Source of the DNA: Escherichia phage EcSzw_1
Reading direction: 5' to 3' (one strand)
Sequence record: MH791413.1
DNA: 64,000 nucleotides
The translations under genes were made by a program, and so were the position numbers. Below are positions 1 through 30,003 of the stretch, piece after piece. Under the pieces are notes generated by a model, which searched no databases, was not told where the DNA came from, and saw only the letters and a list, made by a program, of their open reading frames with translations. Numbering within the stretch: the first letter of the stretch is position 1; each line of letters starts with the position of its first letter.

Positions 1-1064
1 GTAGCCCTTAACAGCCTTGTAACATACCCTTTGCAAAATTTTAAAATATCATTAACAAATTCTTAACAACTCTATCAATCTCTTAACATCTCTTCAAAGG
101 TCTTAACAGATTCTTAACAGGACTAACAAGGGTGTAACAGTTATTTAACAAGTGCTACATAGTCTTTACAGAATCTTAACAGATGACTAACAAGAGCTAA
201 CAAGTTAATTTTAAAGGGTTATTTTGTTAAGATAATTAACAAGTTCCTAACAAGTGTTTAATCCTTTTAACAAGCTGTTAACATGGTCACTATCTCTTCT
301 CTTCTCGTTCCCTTAACTTCTCAGTGAATCTCTAAACATCCTCTTAAAAGCTCTGTATAGCTCTGTATAGCCTCTTTTAAGCCCCTTGTAAGGTAACTAT
401 AGCCCAAGTAACTGTAAAGGGCTTTACAGGGCTTTATAGGGGCTTTAAAGGGTATGCCAAGTTGACTAACAAGGATTTAACAAGGTCTTAACAATGATTT
501 AACATACCCCTAACAAGGGTAACTATGCAGGAGTTGTTAAGAATTTGTTAAGAAAATGTTAAGGGGGNTAGCATTTACGTAACTTTTAAGCCACTTTTAA
601 GCAACTTTATAGCCCCTATAACATACTTTTAAGACAATAACAAGCCCTTTTTAGTAGTTCACAAGGGACTAACGAGATGATAAAGCTTGATACCTTATAA
701 GATTCTTTTAAGGCCATAGAAAGCTCTATAAATGGCTTTTAAGAGTGGGTTAATATGATTGCTTAAGTTAGGTTGATAAGCTGTTATAGGGCTTTATAGA
801 GCGTTTTAGAGGGTTGCCCTCCCCTTTGGGTTATGGGCTTATATTTAAGTTGATTTGATAAGATGATATAGAGTAAGCTATAGAGTTATTATTTTTAAGG
901 TCTGGTAAGATTCTCTAAGAGTCTGCATAGGGATTGCATAGACGTAAAAAAGCCCCTATGAGATAGATTCTATGAAGGTAATTCATTACCTGAATCACTA
1001 TCGAATCCATAGAAAGGGGCTGTTAAGGTATCTGGGGCTATTTTAGCCCCGTTGCGGCGTCTCG
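1..1064. repeat. Non-coding repeat-dense region with a dense array of YTAACA(A/G)G-type motifs, CTTTTAAG motifs, short tandem repeats and fragments of the early promoter cassette
   Basis: No ORF of 60 aa or more in any frame. At least 25 copies of (C)TTAACAAG / CTAACAAGG in both orientations within 1-660 (18 in the first 290 bp). Tandem GCTCTGTATAG x2 (350-371) and GGGCTTTAnAGG x3 (418-449). CTTTTAAGCCCCTTGTAA at 377-394 matches the cassette seen upstream of genes at 2142-2222 and 6333-6415. Confidence 0.6.
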
Positions 1065-1313
1065 TTAGTTATGACCGTCCTTGTCATAGTAAAGAGAAAT
1101 GATTTTATCGTTCCAATAGTGCCAATGATTACCATCTTTCACCGCCTCTTGGATAGCTGCAATCCAAAAATCCGATTCAGGGTTATAATCCTTGACAATC
1201 TGGCTAACAAGGCTTTTCACCATATCAAAAGCACTATCTGTACTGATAATGTCAAATTTAACATCCAGTGAGTAAAAACCATATTCGTTAACAGTTGCGC
1301 GGATAGTTGCCAT
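1065..1313 (-). CDS. Hypothetical small early protein (82 aa)
   Basis: ORF in track; ATG at 1311-1313 directly preceded by conserved SD/leader cassette. Confidence 0.5.
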   Translation of the reverse strand: MATIRATVNEYGFYSLDVKFDIISTDSAFDMVKSLVSQIVKDYNPESDFWIAAIQEAVKDGNHWHYWNDKIISLYYDKDGHN

Positions 1314-1400
1314 CTTTGATTCTCCAGTTTAGGATTGATTTGGTAAAGCTCTTTATCTGGGGCTTATACTATCGAACTATAAACCCCTTGTAAAGCACTT
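1314..1400 (-). promoter_or_regulatory. Early promoter/leader cassette copy 1
   Basis: Plus-strand consensus CATTTTGAATCTCCAGTTTAGGATTGATTTGGTAAAGCTCTTTATCTGGGGCTTATACTATCGAACTATAAACCCCTTGTAAAGCAC. On the minus strand: -35 TTTACA (1389-1394), 17-nt spacer, -10 TAGTAT (1366-1371), SD GGAG, ATG. Confidence 0.5.
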
Positions 1401-1598
1401 TTAATACATTTTATCGAATAACTGGTTTATTGCAGCAACTGCATGATTTTTAAAGTTTAAGTTGTTAGTGTTATCAGAAAACACTACTTCAGTGTTGTAA
1501 GTGATTTCTAGTGATACAAACGAACCATTTACATTTAAAGAATAGGATACACCTTTTAAGCACCACAAGGTAGACAGCTTTTGCATTAAATCTTTCAT
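1401..1598 (-). CDS. Hypothetical small early protein (65 aa)
   Basis: ORF in track; ATG at 1596-1598 preceded by conserved leader AAACTGGAGATTCAAG. Confidence 0.5.
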   Translation of the reverse strand: MKDLMQKLSTLWCLKGVSYSLNVNGSFVSLEITYNTEVVFSDNTNNLNFKNHAVAAINQLFDKMY

Positions 1599-1799
1599 CT
1601 TGAATCTCCAGTTTAGGAAGTAAGCTTGATTGCTTGATAGATACTATAGGGCTTTTAGAAAGTGATTGCAAGCCCTTTTTAGTCTTATCTATAAAGAATC
1701 TTTTAAGTGATTCCTTTTAGATAAAACCCCCTCGAACAAATGTACTATTGTCAAGGGGTATCGTCAAGTAATTTTTGAAAGTTTTTTGTAAGTTGTTGA
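1599..1799 (-). promoter_or_regulatory. Early promoter/leader cassette copy 2 (variant, with hairpin)
   Basis: Conserved leader CTTGAATCTCCAGTTTAGGAAG. Minus strand -35 TTGCAA, 17 nt, -10 TATAGT. Hairpin AGGGCTT / AAGCCCT at 1648-1676 followed by T-tract on the plus strand. Confidence 0.4.
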
Positions 1800-2141
1800 T
1801 TAACTTATAAAGATTTTTTCAGGCTTGACGTAGTTCATTTTTTGGCCTTTAAGTAAATCACTCCAGATTAAAGCGGCAATGTGACCATAACCGGATTCAC
1901 GTAGCGCTTTCATCGTGTTGACTTTTGTTTCAAATCGTGTTGCGTAGTATTCACTGTTAAGGGTTGTTTTGTTCCCTTCATTGTCTGTATGAATGATTTG
2001 CATCACATGAAACGGGCTAACATCCTCTCCGAGATTCCATTGCTCAAAGTATTTTAAACACTGCATAGGCGACATATTATCACTGACTCGTGTAGACCAT
2101 GATGAATTTTCTTTATCGGTAATTACGGTTACATGTGCCAT
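1800..2141 (-). CDS. Hypothetical early protein (113 aa)
   Basis: ORF in track; ATG at 2139-2141 followed by cassette. Confidence 0.5.
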   Translation of the reverse strand: MAHVTVITDKENSSWSTRVSDNMSPMQCLKYFEQWNLGEDVSPFHVMQIIHTDNEGNKTTLNSEYYATRFETKVNTMKALRESGYGHIAALIWSDLLKGQKMNYVKPEKIFIS

Positions 2142-2222
2142 CTTTGAATCTCCAGTTTAGGAAAGCTCTTTATCTGGGGCTTATGGTATCAAGCTTTTAA
2201 GCCCCTTGTANTTGTAAATCTC
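2142..2222 (-). promoter_or_regulatory. Early promoter/leader cassette copy 3
   Basis: CTTTGAATCTCCAGTTTAGGAAAGCTCTTTATCTGGGGCTTATGGTATCAAGCTTTTAAGCCCCTTGTA; N at 2211. Confidence 0.45.
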
Positions 2223-2444
2223 TAAAAATTCATCTTCATTAACATTTTCGTAGTATTCTGCGTTTTCGTCTTCACCTTGTAAGACATAGCAGCCCATTCT
2301 AGACGATTTCGGGTATTCTTGTCTAGCAATATTGCAAGCTTCTACCGCGTTTTGTTTAGTTCCTTCAAAGGATTCTAAAACCCCATAATGGCAATTATTA
2401 GCCCCAGAGCATACAGCAAGCATGAGATAGATTGTAGTTAACAT
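2181..2444 (-). CDS. Hypothetical small secreted or lipoprotein-like protein (87 aa)
   Basis: Hydrophobic N-terminus MLTTIYLMLAVCSG. 3' end reads through the N at 2211 into the cassette (C-terminal YKGLKSLIP is cassette-encoded), so the true stop is uncertain. Confidence 0.4.
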   Translation of the reverse strand: MLTTIYLMLAVCSGANNCHYGVLESFEGTKQNAVEACNIARQEYPKSSRMGCYVLQGEDENAEYYENVNEDEFLEIYXYKGLKSLIP

Positions 2445-2507
2445 GATTTAAGCCCCTTGCAAGCCCCTATGCGGGGCTTTTTAATGTTGTTAGTGTGATT
2501 GTATGGT

Positions 2508-3065
2508 TTACGCTAAAACGTCGTTTACAGTGCTTTCTGTTAAGCTTTCCTGCATTGCGTCTAGCATGTTGCAATAGATAATTGAACTATCATCAGTATT
2601 TTGAATAAAGCTTGCAACTTCTTCAAGTTTTTCATCAACATAGCCTAAATTTGGATTTTTTAAGTTAGGTACAAAAAACGGTGAATACATAGAGTTAAAT
2701 TCTGTGATGTAAACCTTTTTAATCCAATCTTTATCAAAAGATTCTGTAAAGCTTGCGATATCACTCATATTTTCACAAGACCAATCATCTTGCAATTCAT
2801 ATTCTGGAATGTCAAGTTCTAAGATAACAATATTTTGGGTTTTCATCTGAAAAGCTGCTGTGATTGTAGCACTATCAAGAGCATTGCGTAAACCTTCATT
2901 AGTAATTTCTTCAGCATTCATAGAATCAAGGTCATAGAATTTATTAACAGGGTAAACGTAAAAACAACCATCACTATCAGAGCAATTCCAAGCGCCTGAT
3001 GGTTTATCACCGCCATTGATGAGGTTTACAAAGTTTTCTTGAGTAGTACCGTGAAAGCATTTCAT
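2508..3065 (-). CDS. Hypothetical early protein (185 aa)
   Basis: ORF in track; ATG at 3063-3065 followed by cassette. Confidence 0.55.
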   Translation of the reverse strand: MKCFHGTTQENFVNLINGGDKPSGAWNCSDSDGCFYVYPVNKFYDLDSMNAEEITNEGLRNALDSATITAAFQMKTQNIVILELDIPEYELQDDWSCENMSDIASFTESFDKDWIKKVYITEFNSMYSPFFVPNLKNPNLGYVDEKLEEVASFIQNTDDSSIIYCNMLDAMQESLTESTVNDVLA

Positions 3066-3117
3066 TTTGAATCTCCAGTTTAGGATTGATTTGGTAAATC
3101 TCTTTATCTGGGGCTAT
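3066..3117 (-). promoter_or_regulatory. Early promoter/leader cassette copy 4 (interrupted by N run 3118-3124)
   Basis: TTTGAATCTCCAGTTTAGGATTGATTTGGTAAATCTCTTTATCTGGGGCTAT then NNNNNNN. Confidence 0.4.
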
Positions 3118-3368
3118 NNNNNNNTAGTTTTCTTTGAGAAAATTAGTTTAACTGCAACCGTGGGAAGTTCTTCAATACTTGTAAAAAGCGTTACCTTTTG
3201 AGTAACAACCTTGTAACCATTTTTTGCAGCGTATGCCGTGAAACGATTAACCGTATAACTATAAGTTTTTGATGTGTTGTCTGACATATGGTACAAATAG
3301 GGCTTGCCTAAATTTTGAGATTGTGTTAACAGTCGGCAAGTATCAGGAACGTTTAAATAATTAAGCAT
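3114..3368 (-). CDS. Hypothetical small early protein (about 84 aa; 3' end obscured by N run)
   Basis: ORF in track; ATG at 3366-3368; C-terminal codons contain the N run. Confidence 0.4.
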   Translation of the reverse strand: MLNYLNVPDTCRLLTQSQNLGKPYLYHMSDNTSKTYSYTVNRFTAYAAKNGYKVVTQKVTLFTSIEELPTVAVKLIFSKKTXXX

Positions 3369-3453
3369 TTAGATTCTCCAGTTTAGGAAGTGGGATTGCT
3401 TGCCCGTCTGATAAGTAATTTAAGCTATTTAAAAACCAGTGTCAATAGATTTT
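3369..3453 (-). promoter_or_regulatory. Early promoter/leader cassette copy 5 (B-type)
   Basis: TTAGATTCTCCAGTTTAGGAAGTGGGATTGCTTGCCCGTCTGATAAGTAATTT; same B-type at 4211 and 6787. Confidence 0.4.
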
Positions 3454-3858
3454 TTAAAGTTCTGCGTAAATTGCATCACAGATATCACGAAAATCATAGC
3501 TTGTCAAGTTACGTTGTAACCATGTTGCGAAAAAATCAGCTATTGCAAAATTTGCATCATACTCAACAGATAACCACACTTTTACAGCAAATCGAAACAT
3601 TTTCAAGTCAAGTTCTTTATTCATTACTTTTGATTTGCCTAACATGTCAACCATTTCATATTGTGCGCCGTCAAGTGTAACACCTGATGCAACATTTGCA
3701 AGTGAATTTTTTACGCTTTCAACGTCTAAGATTGCACCTTGAATCTTTCCGATAATGTTATGCAGTGTTTCGTCTGGTGCTGCTGATGTAATTACGTTGA
3801 TGCGATTAACGGTCAAACGTGCTTTCAGGATTGCAGTGTCACGAGTATTCATAGCCAT
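3454..3858 (-). CDS. Hypothetical early protein (134 aa)
   Basis: ORF in track; ATG at 3856-3858 followed by cassette. Confidence 0.5.
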   Translation of the reverse strand: MAMNTRDTAILKARLTVNRINVITSAAPDETLHNIIGKIQGAILDVESVKNSLANVASGVTLDGAQYEMVDMLGKSKVMNKELDLKMFRFAVKVWLSVEYDANFAIADFFATWLQRNLTSYDFRDICDAIYAEL

Positions 3859-3945
3859 TTTTAAATCTCCAGTTTAGGGGTTATCGATAAAATCTCTTTA
3901 TCTGGGGCTATACTAGCAAACTTTATAACCCCATGTAANAGACTA
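3859..3945 (-). promoter_or_regulatory. Early promoter/leader cassette copy 6
   Basis: TTTTAAATCTCCAGTTTAGGGGTTATCGATAAAATCTCTTTATCTGGGGCTATACTAGCAAACTTTATAACCCCATGTAA; N at 3939. Confidence 0.45.
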
Positions 3946-4210
3946 AATACAACTTTTTCCCGTTAACAATGATGTAACTTACACCGCTATTGCTGTAAAC
4001 ATCTTGATAGATTCTGCGTAACTTGCCTGAATAGCGCACTTTCCAAGATGTAGGAATCTTTTTACCGTATCCGGTGGATGTTTTTTGTAAACCTGCTAAT
4101 TGCCAATCTAAAATGTGTTGTTCTGCTGTTAACTCTTCAAAGTTTAATACGCCGTCTACATAGTGCTTTAAAGTAACGTTTAAGGTGTGACCATTATTTG
4201 TAGTATACAT
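3923..4210 (-). CDS. Hypothetical small early protein (95 aa)
   Basis: ORF in track; 3' end overlaps cassette and contains N at 3939. Confidence 0.4.
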   Translation of the reverse strand: MYTTNNGHTLNVTLKHYVDGVLNFEELTAEQHILDWQLAGLQKTSTGYGKKIPTSWKVRYSGKLRRIYQDVYSNSGVSYIIVNGKKLYLVXYMGL

Positions 4211-4302
4211 TTTGAATCTCCAGTTTAGGAAGTGGGCTTGCTTGCCCGTCTGATAAGTAATTTACTTGTTTCCGTTACCAGTTGCAAGCCCTTTTTAGAA
4301 AT
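4211..4302 (-). promoter_or_regulatory. Early promoter/leader cassette copy 7 (B-type)
   Basis: TTTGAATCTCCAGTTTAGGAAGTGGGCTTGCTTGCCCGTCTGATAAGTAATTTA plus GTTGCAAGCCCTTTTTAG element shared with copy 2. Confidence 0.4.
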
Positions 4303-4626
4303 TTATTTCCGTTTGCTTATCTCGTGAACAATAACAGCGTGATAATCTTTCAAATTACTAATATTTAAAGCATTTAGTAAAGCATTATAATCATCAACTA
4401 ACTGAAAATCACCGCTTAGAATGTCACTAACCTGATATGTGTTAGCCTTGAATCTGAAGCCCATCTCTAAACGCTTTAATTGTTCTACGTTTAAACGCTC
4501 TAGAAAGGACGTCACAAGGTTATTATTGATTTGCCTTGTGATTGCATCACTTGCCGCCTGATGCGCTTTATAGGCTTTATACAGTGCTAAAATAGCAATA
4601 AATAAGGCAACTCCAGAAATTAGCAT
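4303..4626 (-). CDS. Hypothetical membrane protein (107 aa)
   Basis: N-terminal hydrophobic helix MLISGVALFIAILALY; start overlaps end of upstream gene. Confidence 0.5.
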   Translation of the reverse strand: MLISGVALFIAILALYKAYKAHQAASDAITRQINNNLVTSFLERLNVEQLKRLEMGFRFKANTYQVSDILSGDFQLVDDYNALLNALNISNLKDYHAVIVHEISKRK

Positions 4627-4916
4627 GATGATTTACCTTTATGAAATAGTTTACCAGTGTGACTAATCTCAAAAGAATCTATCATATCTTTTGTTGATTT
4701 AACAGAACTTTTATTTGCATTGTCATAGATATCTACCTGAAGCAATGGCTTTTTGTATTCTTTACAAAAGTTCCAAATACAGACAACAACTTCTTTACCA
4801 TTGATTTTTCCGTGATACCATTCTGTTACTTCATGAGTACGGCGCATAGATTCTACAAATTTGATATCTTGTAAAAGTTTGCTCAACTTGGAACGTACAT
4901 TTGCAGCAATAAACAT
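4620..4916 (-). CDS. Hypothetical early protein (98 aa)
   Basis: ORF in track; ATG at 4914-4916 followed by cassette. Confidence 0.5.
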   Translation of the reverse strand: MFIAANVRSKLSKLLQDIKFVESMRRTHEVTEWYHGKINGKEVVVCIWNFCKEYKKPLLQVDIYDNANKSSVKSTKDMIDSFEISHTGKLFHKGKSSC

Positions 4917-5006
4917 TTTAGAATCTCCAGTTTAGGATTGATTTGGTAAATCTCTTTATCTGGGGCTATNCTTATCAACCTGATAACCCCATGTAAAGCA
5001 ATTTAT
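4917..5006 (-). promoter_or_regulatory. Early promoter/leader cassette copy 8
   Basis: TTTAGAATCTCCAGTTTAGGATTGATTTGGTAAATCTCTTTATCTGGGGCTAT(N)CTTATCAACCTGATAACCCCATGTAAAGCAAT. Confidence 0.45.
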
Positions 5007-5519
5007 TTAGATATCAAAAATATTCATCATTAAATCTTTCAAGGCTTCTAAACGTTCCATGACTTCAGATTCTGCGTCTGCGTTGCTTACTTCCTCTTTT
5101 AGTCTATCCTCTAAATCGTCGCCGTCGCTATAGCACCAATCAAAGGCATATCCAAGATAAAAACTATCTAAAACCGTGTTTCCGTTTGCAGCTACAACTT
5201 TTGCAGATAGGCTATATTCTGAAGCCTCTAAATCCCTTTCTAGTTCTTTCTGTAAGCTGATGTAAGCCTCTCGTGATGGATTTTCCCGGCCTTGTTTTGC
5301 ATAGTCGCTAGAAAGCTGTTTAAGGCTATAGCGTAAAGGGATTGCATATTCAAATTCATTACGTTGATAGTTAGGATTCTTAATAGTTACCCCGCCTTGA
5401 TGGTTGTTTGTAAATTCCCAATCACTGATGTTATGGCTTGCTTCATAGCAGTTAACAGCTTCATATATGATAGAGAATTTCTCTTTTACAACTTCAAAGG
5501 TAGCGTCTACAGTTTTCAT
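5007..5519 (-). CDS. Hypothetical early protein (170 aa)
   Basis: ORF in track; ATG at 5517-5519 followed by cassette. Confidence 0.55.
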   Translation of the reverse strand: MKTVDATFEVVKEKFSIIYEAVNCYEASHNISDWEFTNNHQGGVTIKNPNYQRNEFEYAIPLRYSLKQLSSDYAKQGRENPSREAYISLQKELERDLEASEYSLSAKVVAANGNTVLDSFYLGYAFDWCYSDGDDLEDRLKEEVSNADAESEVMERLEALKDLMMNIFDI

Positions 5520-5604
5520 TTTGAATCTCCAGTTTAGGATTGATTGTAAAGCTCTTTATCTGGGGCTTATATTAGCAACTCATAAACCCCATGTAAAGCA
5601 CTTT
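5520..5604 (-). promoter_or_regulatory. Early promoter/leader cassette copy 9
   Basis: Minus strand -35 TTTACA, 17 nt, -10 TAATAT, SD GGAG; plus-strand TTGAATCTCCAGTTTAGGATTGATTGTAAAGCTCTTTATCTGGGGCTTATATTAGCAACTCATAAACCCCATGTAAAGCAC. Confidence 0.5.
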
Positions 5605-5862
5605 TTAGATTAAATTTGCAGTTAATGCCAAGTGCATTTTATAACCTTGTATAGTGTAAACATTGGTTTTACCAATAGTCTTTACACCTTTGAAAAGGTT
5701 GTAAGAGTTATGCTTTAAGTTTAATTGCTTGTCACACTTTACGCCCCATCTTACAGCAGAATCTTTCCCGTTGTCAATCACTTTTCCGTCTAAATCTTTT
5801 GCCAGTAAACGAGCGTTATCACGAGTTTTTGCATTAACTACTACGTTTTTGATGATAGCCAT
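5605..5862 (-). CDS. Hypothetical small early protein (85 aa)
   Basis: ORF in track; ATG at 5860-5862 followed by cassette. Confidence 0.5.
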   Translation of the reverse strand: MAIIKNVVVNAKTRDNARLLAKDLDGKVIDNGKDSAVRWGVKCDKQLNLKHNSYNLFKGVKTIGKTNVYTIQGYKMHLALTANLI

Positions 5863-5951
5863 TTTTGAATCTCCAGTTTAGGGGTTATTGATAAAATCTC
5901 TTTATCTGGGGCTTATACTATCGAACTATAAACCCCCTGTAAAGCACTTTA
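5863..5951 (-). promoter_or_regulatory. Early promoter/leader cassette copy 10
   Basis: Near-identical to copy 1 (GGGGCTTATACTATCGAACTATAAACCCCCTGTAAAGCAC); -35 TTTACA, 17 nt, -10 TAGTAT on the minus strand. Confidence 0.5.
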
Positions 5952-6332
5952 TTAGCTAATTTTAAAGATAGTCACATAGCCATCACTACCAATCATCTGA
6001 GAAACACCAGCTTTCTCGACATTGTAACCCATTTTATCAAGATGGTAAATTGCATCTTCATAGCCGTAGGCATCACCTTGATAACGTCTCTTCTCACATT
6101 TTATCAAGGTTTTACCACGTCCAGCAAGTGCATTAATGATAGCTTTATCACCTGATAAACTACCATCTAACATAGTTGCGCGATAATGGTTTATTTTGTT
6201 GCCATTTACATCATACTTAAAATTATATGCGTGAACAACAATTATTTTACCTTTGAATTTTTCATCAAGTGTTTTCTCCAGTACATCGCGGAAGTTTTCT
6301 TTATTGATGAATTTAGGCGCACGATATTTCAT
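5952..6332 (-). CDS. Hypothetical early protein (126 aa)
   Basis: ORF in track; ATG at 6330-6332 followed by cassette. Confidence 0.55.
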   Translation of the reverse strand: MKYRAPKFINKENFRDVLEKTLDEKFKGKIIVVHAYNFKYDVNGNKINHYRATMLDGSLSGDKAIINALAGRGKTLIKCEKRRYQGDAYGYEDAIYHLDKMGYNVEKAGVSQMIGSDGYVTIFKIS

Positions 6333-6415
6333 TTTGAATCTCCAGTTTAGGATTGATTATAAAGCTCTTTATCTGGGGCTTATGGTATCAAGCTTTTAAG
6401 CCCCTTGTANGCAAT
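6333..6415 (-). promoter_or_regulatory. Early promoter/leader cassette copy 11
   Basis: Near-identical to copy 3 (…GGGGCTTATGGTATCAAGCTTTTAAGCCCCTTGTA); N at 6410. Confidence 0.45.
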
Positions 6416-6568
6416 AATTTTTATAACTTCTTTTAGTGTGATGTTTTCGCCATTTGTCAAGGCTAAACATTTGTTACCAGTGCATGACAAGTAACTAAAC
6501 GAGACTTTACCAGTTTTAGAAAATCCGTCAAGCCCTTTGTAAGTGATGATAGAGTTTTCTTTTATCAT
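6380..6568 (-). CDS. Hypothetical small early protein (62 aa)
   Basis: ORF in track; 3' end reads through N at 6410 into cassette (same cassette-encoded C-terminus YKGLKSLIP as 2181..2444). Confidence 0.35.
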   Translation of the reverse strand: MIKENSIITYKGLDGFSKTGKVSFSYLSCTGNKCLALTNGENITLKEVIKIIXYKGLKSLIP

Positions 6569-6579
6569 TCATCAAGCCC

Positions 6580-6786
6580 TTAAACGTCATAATAGTAAAT
6601 TGCAGTATGTCTAATATGCTTTCTTGTGTGAGTTGTCAAGTAACAATCTGAATTAATTGACGTGTTTACATATGTATCATAATCTTTCTCTGATATACGT
6701 TGCCACACATCACAAATTAGCATATAAAAGCGACGATGTTTAGTCTCAGTATTATCTACAATCATTAACTCACGTTGATATAACAT
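6580..6786 (-). CDS. Hypothetical small early protein (68 aa; start moved to ATG at 6784-6786)
   Basis: Track ORF starts at a TTG at 6834 inside the cassette. The ATG at 6784-6786 sits at the same distance from the TCTCCAGTTTAGG leader as in all other copies. Confidence 0.5.
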   Translation of the reverse strand: MLYQRELMIVDNTETKHRRFYMLICDVWQRISEKDYDTYVNTSINSDCYLTTHTRKHIRHTAIYYYDV

Positions 6787-6870
6787 TTTGAATCTCCAGT
6801 TTAGGAAGTGGTCTTGTTTGCCCGTCTGATGCAAATACTAAATAACTTTGTTTTGCAGGTCAAGCAAATT
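6787..6870 (-). promoter_or_regulatory. Early promoter/leader cassette copy 12 (B-type)
   Basis: TTTGAATCTCCAGTTTAGGAAGTGGTCTTGTTTGCCCGTCTGATGCAAAT. Confidence 0.4.
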
Positions 6871-15375: not shown

Positions 15376-15692
15376 AACTTCTCTCCAACATGTTTGTACA
15401 GGATGAAACTACGGTCATGAACAATACTTGAGGCAACTGCAAAGTTCTCTTCCAGTATTGCTTTGTTCGGATTATAGAATCCGTCTAAGAATTGGTCAAG
15501 TGCTAATTGGTGATTTTGTGGAAGACCTTTAACATAAATCTTCATAGAAAGCGTGGCAACCACTTCACCTTGAAGTTCATCTCGTGCTGCTACCAAGATT
15601 TGGTTAATGAACTTGTGACCATCTTCAGGACGTTTAATGTCATCCCAATTCTCTTCCAAGACCATATTGATATTCATCTGTTTGATTTTCAT
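15357..15692 (-). CDS. Hypothetical protein (111 aa)
   Basis: ORF in track; ATG at 15690-15692. Confidence 0.45.
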   Translation of the reverse strand: MKIKQMNINMVLEENWDDIKRPEDGHKFINQILVAARDELQGEVVATLSMKIYVKGLPQNHQLALDQFLDGFYNPNKAILEENFAVASSIVHDRSFILYKHVGEKLCKVIG

Positions 15693-15705
15693 AACATTCT
15701 CCAGA

Positions 15706-15731
15706 AATTAAAAAGGCTCCCGTAGGAGCCT
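15706..15731 (-). terminator. Rho-independent terminator downstream of the NAMPT-like gene
   Basis: GGCTCC-CGTA-GGAGCC at 15715-15730 with A-tract on plus (U-tract on minus). Confidence 0.55.
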
Positions 15732-15745
15732 CTTATAATACTTAT

Positions 15746-17572
15746 TTAAAGCTGTCTGTCAATAACATTTCGTACATCACGAAGGTTAACGTAGCCATAT
15801 GGCTGAGAGTCGCAGAATACCAGCTTCAGAGCACACTGAGGGTTATCCAGTACACTTTCAAACTCTGCAAAACCAAAGCCATCCACAGCTTCCAGCTTAT
15901 CACCATCCCACATAGGGACTACACCACCAAAAGCAGACTTCTTAAGACCACTGTCAGTTTTAGGGTCTTTTGCCAGCATGATTTCTTCACCATCCATCTG
16001 TGCAAGAGTTGCTTTAACAGCAAATGCAAAGGTATCACGAGTCATGTACTGGTAAGTGTATGAACCAACACCGAAGACAACGTTAGAACTTGCAAAGCCC
16101 TTTTCAGCAAGACGGCTAAGAATCTCTTCAGCACGTTCCAGAGTGATAGAATCACCGTAGATTAAACCAATGTGTTCATCAAGAACTTTGTAGCCTTTAG
16201 AGTTTACAGCGCCACCAAAAATGTTGTACAGAGTCTTGATAGCACCATCAATTTCTGCTGTCAGCATTGGTTTAACAACAACTTGACCAGTCTTGTAAGT
16301 ATCTTTCAGGTTAACTGTATCAGCAACGTTAAAGTCTTCTGCATCAACAACCAACTCATAACCTTCAGAGATTAGCCAAGCAGAGAAGCCATAGCCCATA
16401 TCTGACATGTTGCAATTAAGGATTGCATCAAGCAGATAAGTATTGTTAGGAGAAATGGTTGACATGTGTTTGTAATACATGCTCTTAGCATTTTCCCATT
16501 CAATTGCACGATAGCCAGTAACAATGTGTACAGGGTCACCGGAATCTGGACGGATTACCAGTTTACCATCACGTTTCAGGATTACTTCACGGAGTTCTGG
16601 AAGAATCTCTGTAACTGTACGCCAGAAGTTGTAAGTATCGGACACAACACTTGCAATACCAGTTGGGTAAACATCTACCAGCAGGTGTTCAAATGTTTTA
16701 ACCTCACCACGCCAGCGTTTAGCATCCAGCAAACTATCAGACTGCATGATGTACTGTGAGTGAATGTCATCTTCTGTCAGGTCTTTCATATTCCATGAAA
16801 TGTTTGCACACATCACAGAGTGTTCAGTTGCTGGAACAGAGTTACCAATATCACTTACAGTCATGAACTGACCATATGCACGTTTAGCAGTATACACAGC
16901 AGGGAAGCTATCAGTACCTTTAAAGCTTGTCAGGTGACCTACAGCATTGAAAGCATCATCTGTGAATCCAGACATACCACGCATTGCAAAGTCGTGACAC
17001 TGCCAAGGAAGATGGAAGTCATTGTCACAGGTCTTATCAGACCAAGATTTACAGATACGTTTGTAATGCAGTGCAATAGTTGCAATGGTACAAGCTTTCC
17101 AGATTTCAGCAGAGAAAGCATCTTCCAGATAACCAGCTACCCAATGGAAGCCCTCAACGGTATTTTTGAAGATAATCATTGGAACACGCATAGGAACGAT
17201 TGTGCCTTCTTCAACAGAGTACACTGCAACTGGCAGATAGCCTAAGTCGTGAAGTTCTTCCCAATGATGACGCTTGATAGCATCTGCACCGAGAACACCA
17301 TTCATGATTTCCAAGATNTCATCAACAGCTTCTTTCTTATCACGTTCGAAGAAAGTTGCATTCCAATGGTCTACTAAGTAATCTTTAACGAAACGTTGGA
17401 TACCAAAAGCAACTACACCGTCAGTCTCCAAAGGAGTGTTAAACCACTTATTACCACGAGGTGTAAGGTTCAGCATCAGGTGCTGAGTTGTACTTGGGTA
17501 CTGGTAGATGTGACCAGCTTTGTAAGCATCTGCGTTAAGACCTGCTGGAACTGCATAGATTGATTTAGACAT
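15746..17572 (-). CDS. Nicotinamide phosphoribosyltransferase family protein (NadV/NAMPT-like; candidate Namat of NARP1)
   Basis: 608 aa; N-terminal NADAYKAGH resembles the NAMPT DSYK-x-x-H signature; adjacent to PRPP-synthetase-family gene; N at 17318 gives one X. Confidence 0.7.
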   Translation of the reverse strand: MSKSIYAVPAGLNADAYKAGHIYQYPSTTQHLMLNLTPRGNKWFNTPLETDGVVAFGIQRFVKDYLVDHWNATFFERDKKEAVDXILEIMNGVLGADAIKRHHWEELHDLGYLPVAVYSVEEGTIVPMRVPMIIFKNTVEGFHWVAGYLEDAFSAEIWKACTIATIALHYKRICKSWSDKTCDNDFHLPWQCHDFAMRGMSGFTDDAFNAVGHLTSFKGTDSFPAVYTAKRAYGQFMTVSDIGNSVPATEHSVMCANISWNMKDLTEDDIHSQYIMQSDSLLDAKRWRGEVKTFEHLLVDVYPTGIASVVSDTYNFWRTVTEILPELREVILKRDGKLVIRPDSGDPVHIVTGYRAIEWENAKSMYYKHMSTISPNNTYLLDAILNCNMSDMGYGFSAWLISEGYELVVDAEDFNVADTVNLKDTYKTGQVVVKPMLTAEIDGAIKTLYNIFGGAVNSKGYKVLDEHIGLIYGDSITLERAEEILSRLAEKGFASSNVVFGVGSYTYQYMTRDTFAFAVKATLAQMDGEEIMLAKDPKTDSGLKKSAFGGVVPMWDGDKLEAVDGFGFAEFESVLDNPQCALKLVFCDSQPYGYVNLRDVRNVIDRQL

Positions 17573-17592
17573 GTTTTAATCTCTCTCAAAGT

Positions 17593-17608
17593 GGGGCTTT
17601 GCAGCCCC
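17593..17608 (-). other. Intergenic GNRA-tetraloop hairpin between Prs-like and NAMPT-like genes
   Basis: GGGGCT-TTGC-AGCCCC; no U-tract on the minus strand, so not a clear terminator. Confidence 0.4.
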
Positions 17609-17617
17609 TGATTAATT

Positions 17618-18499
17618 TTAGTAAATGTTTGCTACAGTTACTTGACCGAAATGAGTCAGACCACGGTCTTTTGCACTACCTAAAGAGTCTGTAGTGTAGA
17701 TGTGTGAAATCCCATTGTCAAGCAGGTTTTCAACACCTTTTGAGAAAATACCATGTGTTACATACAGTTCAACTTTAGCTGCTCCAGCTTCACGAAGATA
17801 CTTGGCTGCTTCAATGAATGTACGACCACCATCACAGATATCATCAATGATGAGTACAGTTTTACCAGTCAGGTCTACATCATCCAGTAGACGCATACCT
17901 GTAATCTCACCAGTCTTCAGGTCTCGAACCTTAGCCATTGTAACGTAAGGCTTATCAACCTCTTTAGCCGTCTCTGCAATCTTCTTAGCTGCTCCTGCAT
18001 CTGGTGCTACCAAGAAATCAATGGTAGGCTCACTGGCATAGTGTGCTGCAACATCTTTTTGATGGATGTTCTGGAAGCATTTGAACAGGTTATCTGCAAC
18101 GTCACTGTGGGCGTCTAGAGCACATACTGCATCAAAACCCATTGCATTGACCAGATTAGCAAACACCTTTAGTGCTGCTGCATCACCTTTAAATATGTGA
18201 CGGTCATAGCGAGCATTTGGCAGATAAGCAAAGATGACAGTTTTCATAGTTGCTTGCTGAGGAATCATTTTGTCGATTGCCTCTTTTGCCAGAGCTAAAG
18301 CAAACAATGTGTCTTTGTCATAACCCTGTACAGTGAAGATGACGTTCTCAATCTGGGAAGCATTCTCTTCAGCATAGATTACTAAGTCTTCAGAGAAGTT
18401 ACCACCAATTTCTCCAGACGGGAACTGGATAATGTTGAACTCTTCTTGGTGAGCACCTTTTTTCTGTGAGTGCAACAGTACGCTAATAATAGTTTTCAT
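17618..18499 (-). CDS. Ribose-phosphate pyrophosphokinase family protein (Prs-like; candidate Adps of NARP1)
   Basis: PRPP-binding loop VLIIDDICDGGRT; 293 aa. Confidence 0.75.
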   Translation of the reverse strand: MKTIISVLLHSQKKGAHQEEFNIIQFPSGEIGGNFSEDLVIYAEENASQIENVIFTVQGYDKDTLFALALAKEAIDKMIPQQATMKTVIFAYLPNARYDRHIFKGDAAALKVFANLVNAMGFDAVCALDAHSDVADNLFKCFQNIHQKDVAAHYASEPTIDFLVAPDAGAAKKIAETAKEVDKPYVTMAKVRDLKTGEITGMRLLDDVDLTGKTVLIIDDICDGGRTFIEAAKYLREAGAAKVELYVTHGIFSKGVENLLDNGISHIYTTDSLGSAKDRGLTHFGQVTVANIY

Positions 18500-18511
18500 C
18501 TTTAATCTCTC

Positions 18512-18862
18512 TCAATCAAAAGTTACAAAGGTTACAGCCATAGCTGTTTTGCATTTTTGTGGATTCACAATGTGATAGATTACTGAACAGTTATCTGTTC
18601 CATCTGGGACTGGTTTTGTCCAAGTGCGTTCAACATTTGGTTCACCGAGTTCTTTGTAGAATCCATTTGTGTGATGGTCAATCATCTCAAGTGCTAATGA
18701 GTCTGGTACATGACCACGAATCATATACATCTCACAACCATTGCCAGCATCACTTACAAGGTCTTTTATTTCCCAATCTGCTCTAGCCACGATAAGTTGC
18801 CTTATAAACAGTTTCGAATTTCGACAAGAGAGATATTGCCAGAACTGCATATTCTCTGTCAA
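18512..18862 (-). CDS. Hypothetical protein (116 aa)
   Basis: ORF in track; overlaps 3' end of the HNH gene, start may be further downstream. Confidence 0.35.
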   Translation of the reverse strand: MTENMQFWQYLSCRNSKLFIRQLIVARADWEIKDLVSDAGNGCEMYMIRGHVPDSLALEMIDHHTNGFYKELGEPNVERTWTKPVPDGTDNCSVIYHIVNPQKCKTAMAVTFVTFD

Positions 18863-19298
18863 GCATTGGTGGCATATTATTTTTTAGATACTCTTTTTGT
18901 TCTTCGTAAGTCATCTTTGGAGTATCTAAAACCTTCTCACCTTGCTTCTGGTTATCAATCTTAGTTTGGATAAACCAGTTTGCACAGTGGTGTTCACCAC
19001 CTTTTGTGACTGGCTTGTGATGGCCTAATGTAAAGGCTTGCTTGCCAGAATAACGACAAAGCTTGTTAAGAGTTGCAATAGTGTTCTTGACAACACAGTA
19101 TTCATAAAGGTTGTCAATTGTATAGTGAGGGTAGTATGCAAAGAGGGAACTGTCACGGAACTTCCCACGATTCCAGAGAACCATGTGATTAGAGTTGGAA
19201 GGGTCATACTGATGGGAATCAATAAACTCTTGACGTTCATCAAAGTCAAGTCTAAGAACAGACATTGCAGCAGCACGTTTCAAGTTAGGTAAGTACAT
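18783..19298 (-). CDS. HNH endonuclease (putative homing endonuclease)
   Basis: HNH-like motif GHHKPVTKGGEHHCANW. Confidence 0.5.
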   Translation of the reverse strand: MYLPNLKRAAAMSVLRLDFDERQEFIDSHQYDPSNSNHMVLWNRGKFRDSSLFAYYPHYTIDNLYEYCVVKNTIATLNKLCRYSGKQAFTLGHHKPVTKGGEHHCANWFIQTKIDNQKQGEKVLDTPKMTYEEQKEYLKNNMPPMLDREYAVLAISLLSKFETVYKATYRG

Positions 19299-19350
19299 TT
19301 TCTCTCCAAAATAAAAAGGGAACCTTTTACAGTTCCCTAATCATAACGAA

Positions 19351-19662
19351 TTATTGAAGCTCTTTCAAGACTCTTACAAAATCTTCTTGGCTTACATCCG
19401 TCTTAAGTGATTCAGACGGTTTGACAAGGTTGTTTGTACACACAATCTTCTTGTGTTTTTTGTCATAAGTCAGCTTCAGTTGGTGCAATTCTTTATTGGA
19501 TTCACTCTGTGAGTTATACATCTCAACAGCCTTTTTGAATGGTGTATACTCACCACCAAAAGCTAAAAATCCTGTACCACAATAATGTGCGTTATGTTTG
19601 TCATACATGAACTGGCAAAGCATTAAAATCTGAAGCTTACGAGTGTTATAAATCTTGCTCAT
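19351..19662 (-). CDS. Hypothetical protein (103 aa)
   Basis: ORF in track. Confidence 0.45.
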   Translation of the reverse strand: MSKIYNTRKLQILMLCQFMYDKHNAHYCGTGFLAFGGEYTPFKKAVEMYNSQSESNKELHQLKLTYDKKHKKIVCTNNLVKPSESLKTDVSQEDFVRVLKELQ

Positions 19663-29289: not shown

Positions 29290-29516
29290 TAAACCTCCTG
29301 AAACAGTTTCTGCTGAGACTCAATATAATCCAGTCGGCCTTTCAGTTCAACACGTTTGTTAATCAGGTGCTGAATCTGGGACTCAAGAGCCTCCATTTCG
29401 GACTCCGTAGCTTCTTTAGCTTTGACAATTGCATCTTTCAGTGCTGCAATGTGACTGTCAATCTTAGCTACGTGGTCATTATTAATTTTGTTAAATATCA
29501 TCTTATTCTCTCTCAT
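29289..29516 (-). CDS. Small coiled-coil protein (75 aa)
   Basis: Heptad-like charged sequence; ORF in track. Confidence 0.4.
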   Translation of the reverse strand: MRENKMIFNKINNDHVAKIDSHIAALKDAIVKAKEATESEMEALESQIQHLINKRVELKGRLDYIESQQKLFQEV

Positions 29517-30003
29517 TAAGTTTCATGATTTTATGGATTCTCTTCTCAGCATCTTCATAAGTCTCTTTAGTCAGAAACTTGATTGCTGCAATGTTTGCAT
29601 TGTAGAAGAGTCGAAGCTTGGAGTCAATCCTTTTTGTCATGACGTCAAACTTATGTTGAAGGTTAGCTTCTCCGTAGACCAACCCACCTCGCGTATAATA
29701 AGTTTGCACAATATAGAAGTCAAACTCTTTTTCACCGAAAGTTTCAATATCTTTCTTAATGTACTCAGAAGAGGTCTGGTAAACCTTCCAGTCACTCTCT
29801 TTTGTCACAATCTTACGTCTGGTCTTTCCAGCTACTTTCTTCTTGGTGACATTGTTAAACTGCTTCTTACCCAAATAGTACTGTCCAGTCTTTTTGCAGT
29901 ACACTAAGTAGACAAACCCAAAGTATTTAGTTGGGTCAATTTCTCCACAAAGTGAAATCCAATGTCCATATTCAGGGCAATTACCAAAACCTTTAATCTT
30001 CAT
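29503..30003 (-). CDS. Putative GIY-YIG-like endonuclease
   Basis: FGFVYLVYCKKTGQYYLGKK fits the GIY-(10-11 aa)-YIG spacing; basic region follows; tentative. Confidence 0.3.
   Translation of the reverse strand: MKIKGFGNCPEYGHWISLCGEIDPTKYFGFVYLVYCKKTGQYYLGKKQFNNVTKKKVAGKTRRKIVTKESDWKVYQTSSEYIKKDIETFGEKEFDFYIVQTYYTRGGLVYGEANLQHKFDVMTKRIDSKLRLFYNANIAAIKFLTKETYEDAEKRIHKIMKLNERE

Follow-up and report, generated by a model that had tools for sequence, protein, structure and literature searches.

A predicted core NARP1 gene pair in the Felix O1-like coliphage EcSzw_1

Escherichia phage EcSzw_1 (sequence record MH791413.1) carries two neighboring minus-strand genes, one encoding a homolog of ribose-phosphate pyrophosphokinase (Prs) and the other a homolog of nicotinamide phosphoribosyltransferase (Nampt). 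This arrangement raises the question of whether the pair serves classical nucleotide salvage or forms NARP1, a phage pathway for reconstituting nicotinamide adenine dinucleotide (NAD+). We analyzed a 64,000-nt stretch of the phage sequence (hereafter the window) and conclude that the pair is very probably a NARP1 module in its core two-gene form, carried by a Felix O1-like (Ounavirinae) coliphage, with the Prs-like gene corresponding to adps and the Nampt-like gene to namat. The pair is already published. NARP1 was described in 2024 from work on another member of the subfamily, the homolog tables of that study include these genes, structures are by now available for both types of enzyme, and the identification here adds nothing beyond that literature.

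In the proposed mechanism, a NAD+-depleting defense of the SIR2, TIR or SEFIR type would split NAD+ into ADP-ribose (ADPR) and nicotinamide. Adps would then move the beta-gamma pyrophosphate of ATP onto the terminal ribose of ADPR, giving ADPR-PP, and Namat would exchange the pyrophosphate of ADPR-PP for nicotinamide, yielding NAD+ directly without host salvage through nicotinamide mononucleotide (NMN). This chemistry is known in vitro for enzymes from Bacillus phage SPbetaL1, Vibrio phage ICP1, DyoEdafos and P. foliorum, and an anti-defense phenotype is known for Bas63, FADO and an engineered SBSphiJ. From these relatives, we infer the same chemistry and anti-defense role for the pair in EcSzw_1.

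The gene pair and its relatives

The two open reading frames (ORFs) lie at 17618-18499 and 15746-17572 on the minus strand and encode proteins of 293 and 608 aa, with adps first and a 45-nt spacer between them (Table 1). The initial annotation had placed adjacent Prs-family and NAMPT-family genes here; the ORF list reproduced its coordinates exactly, and both family assignments were borne out by Pfam and PHROG matches far beyond chance. The 293-aa protein matched Pribosyltran (PF00156, E 3e-14), Pribosyl_synth (PF14572, E 3.4e-10) and, over its full length, PHROG 619 (E 1.1e-97, 328 bits), and the 608-aa protein matched NAPRTase (PF04095, E 4.7e-31), NAMPT_N (PF18127) and PHROG 448 (E 7.6e-194). 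Both motifs that had been reported from the translations were also found, VLIIDDICDGGRT at residues 215-227 of the first protein (window 17857-17819) and DAYKAGH at residues 15-21 of the second (17530-17510).

Over the 3401 nt from window position 15500 to 18900, the sequence matches that of Escherichia phage EcSzw-2 (MH791400.1; Ounavirinae, Suspvirus) at 100% identity, and for the window as a whole the identity is about 100%. In that record, the two genes are EcSzw2_33, annotated as a "putative ribose-phosphate pyrophosphokinase", and EcSzw2_32, annotated as a "putative nicotinate phosphoribosyltransferase". The same block recurs in 249 phage records, nearly all of them Felix O1-like, from Escherichia, Salmonella, Shigella and Citrobacter hosts. 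A single undetermined residue at position 85 of the Namat-like protein stems from an N at window position 17318; MH791400.1 has a T there, giving GAA and hence Glu, as in Bas63. Measured against Bas63, neither ORF is shortened or frameshifted.

The best studied relative of the pair is that of phage Bas63 (JohannRWettstein), the phage used for the in vivo work that defined the system (Osterman et al., bioRxiv 10.1101/2024.02.11.579819). The Adps sequence here is 78% identical to Bas63_0079 over 292 aa, and the Namat sequence is 74% identical to Bas63_0080. The two phages belong to the same subfamily and share the order and spacing of the genes, the stem of the hairpin between them and the terminator after them, although Bas63 is a Felixounavirus and the phage studied here a Suspvirus. 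The wider neighborhood matches as well, in that nrdG and small ORFs precede the pair, and two small ORFs together with rIIA, rIIB and pnk lie downstream of it. Bas63 lacking genes 79-80 suffered an approximately 20-fold loss of plating on SIR2-HerA and a deeper depletion of NAD+, ADPR-PP (m/z 720.010) was detected only when wild type Bas63 met a defense system, and wild type Bas63 still overcame the defense in a pncC nadR double-deletion host (10.1101/2024.02.11.579819).

The pair itself appears in the supplementary catalog of the same study. MH791400_00033 is listed among the Adps homologs in Supplementary Table 1 with the entry "Namat within 10 genes: Yes", and MH791400_00032 among the Namat homologs in Supplementary Table 2 as "Adps-associated" (10.1101/2024.02.11.579819). 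A scan of IMG/VR with the Adps sequence recovered 80 loci at 31-96% identity. A Namat homolog lay within 3 kb in 69 of these, downstream on the same strand in 65, and most of the Namat homologs carried the aromatic clamp motif described below.

One entry of Supplementary Table 1, FJ373894_00125 from Shigella phage Ag3, has an Adps-like beginning and, right after the DDICDGGRTFVE loop, turns into the middle and C-terminal part of a Namat; the Namat part holds …AATEHAVMCMG…RPDSGDP…. This ORF is either a natural Adps-Namat fusion or deletion, or an artefact of assembly or frameshift.

Signatures of Namat and Adps, and the alternative readings

If the pair were a classical salvage module, the Prs homolog would make phosphoribosyl pyrophosphate (PRPP) from ribose-5-phosphate, the Nampt homolog would make NMN from it, and host NadR or PncC would carry the product on to NAD+. 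Generic protein models agree with this reading, since TIGR01251, a broad ribose-phosphate diphosphokinase subfamily model, accepts the first protein at 140 bits (cut-off 113), and the nicotinate/nicotinamide phosphoribosyltransferase model NF006629 accepts the second at 461 (cut-off 405). The fold and the core D, Y, F, R, D, H and RPDSG residues of Nampt/NadV are likewise common to the Namat sequence, and the fold, the RxDR, DxHS and DD-x-x-D-x-G-x-T loop motifs and the catalytic Lys of E. coli Prs are common to the Adps sequence (23-27% identity). We therefore looked to the features by which the published structures separate the two kinds of enzyme.

The crystal-structure paper on SPbetaL1 Namat gives a two-part signature for Namat as opposed to Nampt. 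The first part is a helix motif, GS-X-phi-X-phi-X-phi-TRD, in which positions 3 and 7 are aromatics that stack on adenine, and the second is a stacking residue in the beta1-beta2 loop. Both are present in the 608-aa protein as a selectivity-clamp helix (SCH) and a selectivity-clamp loop (SCL). The helix motif is identical in Bas63 Namat, which also shares the K-W clamp loop; in SPbetaL1 Namat, R40 takes the place of K-W. Two phage Nampts without an Adps neighbor, from Vibrio phage D527 and Klebsiella phage KP1LMA, share 28-30% identity with Namat here and have GGGLLQQSDRD or GGGLLQEVTRD at the position of the helix motif, that is, GGGLLQ in place of the aromatic clamp.

The SPbetaL1 enzyme is also the closest solved structure to Namat here (9W5W/9W5X, E 2.6e-122, compared with ~1e-38 for human NAMPT). 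The SPbetaL1 proteins are ~40-45% (Namat) and 31-35% (Adps) identical to those of the pair, and the Namat residues that contact nicotinamide, the NMN phosphate and adenine are all kept or conservatively replaced here (F392->Y505). The catalytic core is retained (D15, Y17, F195, R198, D221, H251, R341, D343, G473 and D474) and includes every core residue named for SPbetaL1 Namat, among them the Arg equivalent to R306.

The Namat of one ICP1 isolate, 2017_Dha_Y (locus L011, 2639-3958), reads GSYTYQYVTCD at the helix motif, with Cys replacing the Arg that contacts the NMN phosphate (R399 in SPbetaL1), and its 439-aa ORF is without the N-terminal ~50 residues that bear the D/Y nicotinamide-stacking pair and the clamp loop. 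This copy may be impaired, or the start of the gene may have been miscalled.

The Adps sequence was compared with cellular Prs by means of profile models, residue positions and pairwise scores. The initial annotation had proposed profile hidden Markov models as a way to distinguish Adps from cellular Prs, and the result favors Adps, as the protein falls below every NCBIfam Prs equivalog cut-off, reaching at best 114.5 of the 296 bits required (NF002095), and is accepted by the broad TIGR01251 alone. The Pfam Pribosyltran_N domain was also below its gathering score (17.5 against 25). When the residue numbers of PMC13586617 were placed on the ICP1 Adps sequence from GenBank, 11 were kept out of 15 catalytic or ligand-contact residues that are named there and were compared. 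These are F26, R97, H131, D167, K190, D219, D220, C222, D223, T227 and F228, corresponding in that order to ICP1 F18, R87, H121, D161, K185, D212, D213, C215, D216, S220 and F221.

The conserved Lys190 aligns with ICP1 Adps K185 and SPbetaL1 Adps K162, and alanine substitution of these lysines abolished the formation of ADPR-PP or NAD+. In the PP loop, whose role in binding the ATP donor is described in PMC13586617, D219/D220/I221/C222/D223/G224/T227/F228 align with D212/D213/I214/C215/D216/G217/S220/F221 of the ICP1 enzyme. ICP1 Adps, for which apo, substrate and product structures are available (PMC13586617), is 33-37% identical to the protein here and shares the DDICDG core of the loop, which reads DDICDGGRT here and DDLSSFGGT in SPbetaL1 Adps. 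Pairwise scores were 125 bits against ICP1 Adps, 100 against SPbetaL1 Adps and 67 against E. coli Prs. A sequence search of the PDB with Adps returned archaeal and cellular Prs only (best E 8e-20), the ICP1 Adps coordinates apparently lying outside the set searched. Taken on its sequence, the 293-aa protein is predicted to belong to the phage Adps clade and not to cellular Prs.

These observations make classical salvage a very improbable reading. All Prs equivalog models fail for the first protein, and the second has the adenine clamp and not the GGGLLQ of Nampt. SPbetaL1 Adps gave no product in a PRPP-synthesis assay, Bas63 NARP1 works in a host without pncC and nadR, and a crude motif scan of the window revealed no NatV-like partner of the NMNAT/Nudix kind. 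Taken together, the clamp motif, the Prs cut-offs and the genetics of Bas63 led us to reject a classical Prs/NadV pair. The initial annotation had suggested NARP1 as a candidate and had stated that Adps/Namat could not be told from a classical Prs/NadV pair. The candidacy gains support from the published tables, the Bas63 orthologs, the Namat clamp and the Adps residues, and the choice that had been left undecided is settled for NARP1 by the clamp, the equivalog cut-offs, the published catalog and Bas63 orthology.

Several points weigh against the NARP1 assignment. Four ICP1 contact positions differ in Adps here (F92->I102, A218->G225, A219->R226 and F223->E230). FADO Adps scores 70 bits against our protein, no higher than the 67 bits of E. 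coli Prs, so the pairwise score alone is not decisive for its placement. Namat here carries ~110 residues more than the crystallized enzyme (608 compared with 491 aa). The in vitro chemistry comes from enzymes outside the Ounavirinae, the Bas63 enzyme having purified poorly, and Namat enzymes also form NMN from PRPP in vitro. Given this last activity, a minor salvage contribution may accompany NARP1.

Most of the extra length of Namat relative to SPbetaL1 Namat falls in two insertions (Table 1), which are both shared with Bas63 Namat, the first being 15 residues longer here than in Bas63. Among 51 Adps-linked Namat homologs from IMG/VR, between 83 and 165 residues separate RPDSG from the SCH, compared with 162 here; as this length varies so widely, the larger insertion is a variable hotspot and not peculiar to this phage. 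The word "insertion", searched for in the Namat structure paper, led to no passage on the larger one.

A second possibility is that the pair performs NARP1 chemistry mainly for the general upkeep of NAD+ during phage metabolism, and not for counter-defense. The pair sits among genes of nucleotide metabolism (nrdA/B/D/G, pnk, thymidylate synthase and DHFR), and the module is fixed in more than 100 Ounavirinae genomes whatever the host. In Bas63, however, ADPR-PP appeared only with a defense present and the deletion had a phenotype only on the defense strain, and NARP1 requires free ADPR, which is abundant only after NAD+ has been cleaved. We hold upkeep as the main role to be hardly probable. 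That the locus is a decayed or inactive copy kept by descent is barely credible, for although the GenBank record MH791400.1 carries an UNVERIFIED flag and an N falls inside namat, the ORFs are full length relative to Bas63, the catalytic residues are all kept and the N is a T (Glu85) in the record.

Two other NAD+ pathways of phages were tried and rejected. NARP2, which uses a classical Nampt and a partner NMN adenylyltransferase/Nudix protein (NatV), was set aside because no Nudix box or (H/T)xGH NMNAT motif was found in window ORFs of at least 60 aa (a crude scan, with the last 22 kb of the genome outside the window) and the SCH is of the Namat type. NARP3 consists of a PnuC-like transporter and a NadR-like enzyme, and the pair has PRPS and Nampt folds instead. 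A possible third NAD gene in the window, the "putative NAD synthetase" EcSzw2_52 (29503-30003, minus strand), is misannotated: it encodes a homing endonuclease of the SegE GIY-YIG type (PF19835, E 3e-27), adjoins an HNH endonuclease gene and plays no part in NAD metabolism.

If NARP1 is the correct reading, the Namat clamp motif together with failed Prs equivalog models would provide a quick sequence rule for relabeling such pairs. EcSzw-2 would also be expected to overcome NAD+ depletion of the SIR2-HerA, DSR, Thoeris type I and SEFIR types.

Table 1. Positions in the window of the gene pair, its functional residues, flanking genes and hairpins
Feature	Position	Strand	Basis or remark
adps, ADP-ribose pyrophosphokinase (PRPS fold; predicted), EcSzw2_33 / MH791400_00033	17618..18499	-	ORF, Pfam, PHROG, Bas63 identity, published table
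Lys190 codon, catalytic beta-hairpin lysine of Adps	17930..17932	-	aligns with ICP1 Adps K185 and SPbetaL1 Adps K162
PP loop region VLIIDDICDGGRT, residues 215-227 of Adps	17819..17857	-	alignment to ICP1 Adps
namat, nicotinamide ADP-ribose transferase (Nampt fold; predicted), EcSzw2_32 / MH791400_00032	15746..17572	-	ORF, PHROG, PDB match, Bas63 identity, published table
SCL G40-N41-K42-W43 of Namat	17444..17455	-	Lys at third position plus aromatic, as in Bas63 Namat S40-D41-K42-W43
His251 codon, catalytic histidine in ATEHSV of Namat	16820..16822	-	aligns with SPbetaL1 H245; invariant in 6 of 6 aligned sequences
Second insertion, ~30 aa (residues 258-289), relative to SPbetaL1 Namat	~16706-16801	-	alignment
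Insertion, ~80 aa (residues ~355-441), relative to SPbetaL1 Namat	16250..16510	-	between RPDSGD strand and FGG segment
SCH GSYTYQYMTRD, residues 503-513 of Namat	16034..16066	-	identical to Bas63 motif
Intergenic stem-loop GGGGCU-GCAA-AGCCCC	17593..17608	-	~20 nt upstream of namat start, just before GAGAGAG ribosome-binding stretch
Intrinsic terminator closing the unit, 10-bp stem then UUUUU	15711..15734	-	identical hairpin after Bas63_0080
Terminator-like hairpin, upstream boundary of the presumed four-gene unit	19317..19338	-	equivalent hairpin before Bas63_0077
Upstream gene, 171 aa, PHROG 3500, weak HNH-like match	18783-19298	-	order as Bas63_0077
Upstream gene, 92 aa, PHROG 4726, GTG start inferred	18512-18790	-	order as Bas63_0078
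EcSzw2_17, "putative phosphatase", 260 aa	7287-8069	-	N-terminal Macro domain PF01661, E 2.7e-8

NARP1 extensions and a distal Macro-domain protein

Two extensions of NARP1 are known, an embedded Macro phosphatase, Adpp, which counters the aRES defense (NARP1-AP), and an embedded RyR-domain glycosidase, RyDEP. The core enzymes of the pair are the same as in the NARP1-AP of Vibrio phage Gary (Adps, Adpp and Namat) and in the RyDEP-containing NARP1 of phage DyoEdafos, and no Macro or RyR gene lies within two genes of the pair here. The four ORFs flanking it gave no Macro match at E <= 0.01 and no match to the RyR domain (PF02026), which makes this a core two-gene NARP1 by the published definition. 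The published NARP1-AP table likewise has no entry from an Escherichia or Salmonella phage. The aRES survey scanned two genes on each side of NARP1, so a dispersed Adpp would have been missed.

A Macro-domain protein, EcSzw2_17, is encoded on the same strand 7.7 kb downstream of the pair. Among solved structures, yeast Poa1p, an ADPR-1''-phosphate phosphatase, is its closest relative. The Macro domain can be aligned with Gary Adpp over its entire length (30% identity, E 2e-17) and is 33% identical to a NARP1-linked Macro protein of Pseudomonas phage PN09. EcSzw2_17 and Gary Adpp pick out the same 17 operon-embedded Macro genes in the IMG/VR loci, EcSzw2_17 often with the higher scores. The HxCNC, MGxGIA, NxYTQ and PxIGxG motifs are retained, and Bas63 has an ortholog, bas63_0095, at 69% identity. 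This homology to Adpp beyond the two-gene neighborhood was not found in the literature examined.

It is conceivable, with a likelihood well short of even, that the Felix O1-like phages (Ounavirinae) run a dispersed NARP1-AP through EcSzw2_17, as the sequence comparisons above would allow. Speaking against this, EcSzw2_17 has GLDP where GGDW is invariant in the 14 operon-embedded Adpps aligned, it carries an extra C-terminal domain of ~100 aa without a family match, and the same Macro family occurs in phage T4, which to our knowledge carries no NARP1. Should EcSzw2_17 act as a phosphatase on ADPR-1''-P, it would supply NARP1 with substrate and enable these phages to withstand aRES-type defense; unless this distal protein supplies Adpp activity, EcSzw-2 should stay sensitive to aRES.

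Transcription unit, hairpins and flanking sequence

Both hairpins of the initial annotation were recovered, and both proved better folded than shuffled sequence. The one between the genes (17593-17608) has a fold z-score of -2.7, and the terminator placed at 15706-15731 is essentially the same feature as the hairpin at 15734-15711, with a z-score of -3.9. On the coding strand, the intergenic hairpin is followed by ACUUUG with no U-run, and we rejected it as a canonical intrinsic terminator for this reason. Its stem is invariant in four sequences, with the loops GCAA in the window, UGAA in Bas63 and GAAA in each of two IMG/VR relatives (L013 and L014). There was no covariation among the four and no Rfam match, so an invariant stem does not allow RNA-level selection or function to be claimed. 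The hairpin may act in the stability, attenuation or processing of the transcript.

The positions of the terminators suggest that adps and namat are probably co-transcribed with two upstream genes, in a unit running from the hairpin at 19338-19317 to that at 15734-15711. The nearer of the upstream genes, 18512-18790, is given in GenBank as a misc_feature "similar to hypothetical protein" and not as a coding sequence. The PHROG 4726 match starts at residue 26 of a longer, TTG-started ORF, which points to the Val codon at 18790-18788 (taken as GTG) as the likely start of the gene. With this start, the gene overlaps its upstream neighbor by 8 nt, an arrangement also seen in Bas63_0077/0078, and it is probably intact.

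A sigma-70-like site at 15762-15735 (11 of 12 consensus positions) lies in the last codons of namat and abuts the terminator, and it is also found in Bas63. Another at 19340-19368 on the minus strand (10 of 12) abuts the hairpin at 19317-19338, its position again being conserved in Bas63. The promoter scan found 12 sigma-70-like sites compared with 10.4 in shuffled sequence; as this is no enrichment, the promoter assignments are offered as suggestions based on positional conservation in Bas63. The arrangement suggests back-to-back modules of terminator and promoter at both ends of the unit, in which the hairpin could both end the upstream transcript and form the 5' end of the next.

At its start, the window does not run collinearly with MH791400.1. 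Its positions 1-383 correspond to 3308-3690 of the record and 899-3117 to 568-2772 (99.3% identity), 384-898 had no match in the stretch compared, and a run of seven Ns occupies 3118-3124, after which the two are collinear from 3125 on. This indicates a different assembly or a rearranged terminus in window 1-3124. Across the 64-kb window, ARAGORN found no tRNA genes and no Rfam family reached its gathering score.

A module of ~60-100 nt is repeated before at least 10 small early minus-strand genes in window 1300-6850, with copies at 1302, 2162, 3060, 3847, 4905, 5505, 5851, 6327 and others. On the plus strand it reads CAT-TTTGAATCTCCAGTTTAGG...TCTGGGGCT...CCCC-TGTAAAG, and on the minus strand it comprises a TTTACA-type -35 box, a GGGG/CCCC pair, a GGAG ribosome-binding site and ATG. 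The module is probably a repeated early promoter with its leader, and several of the N bases of the window sit within its copies.

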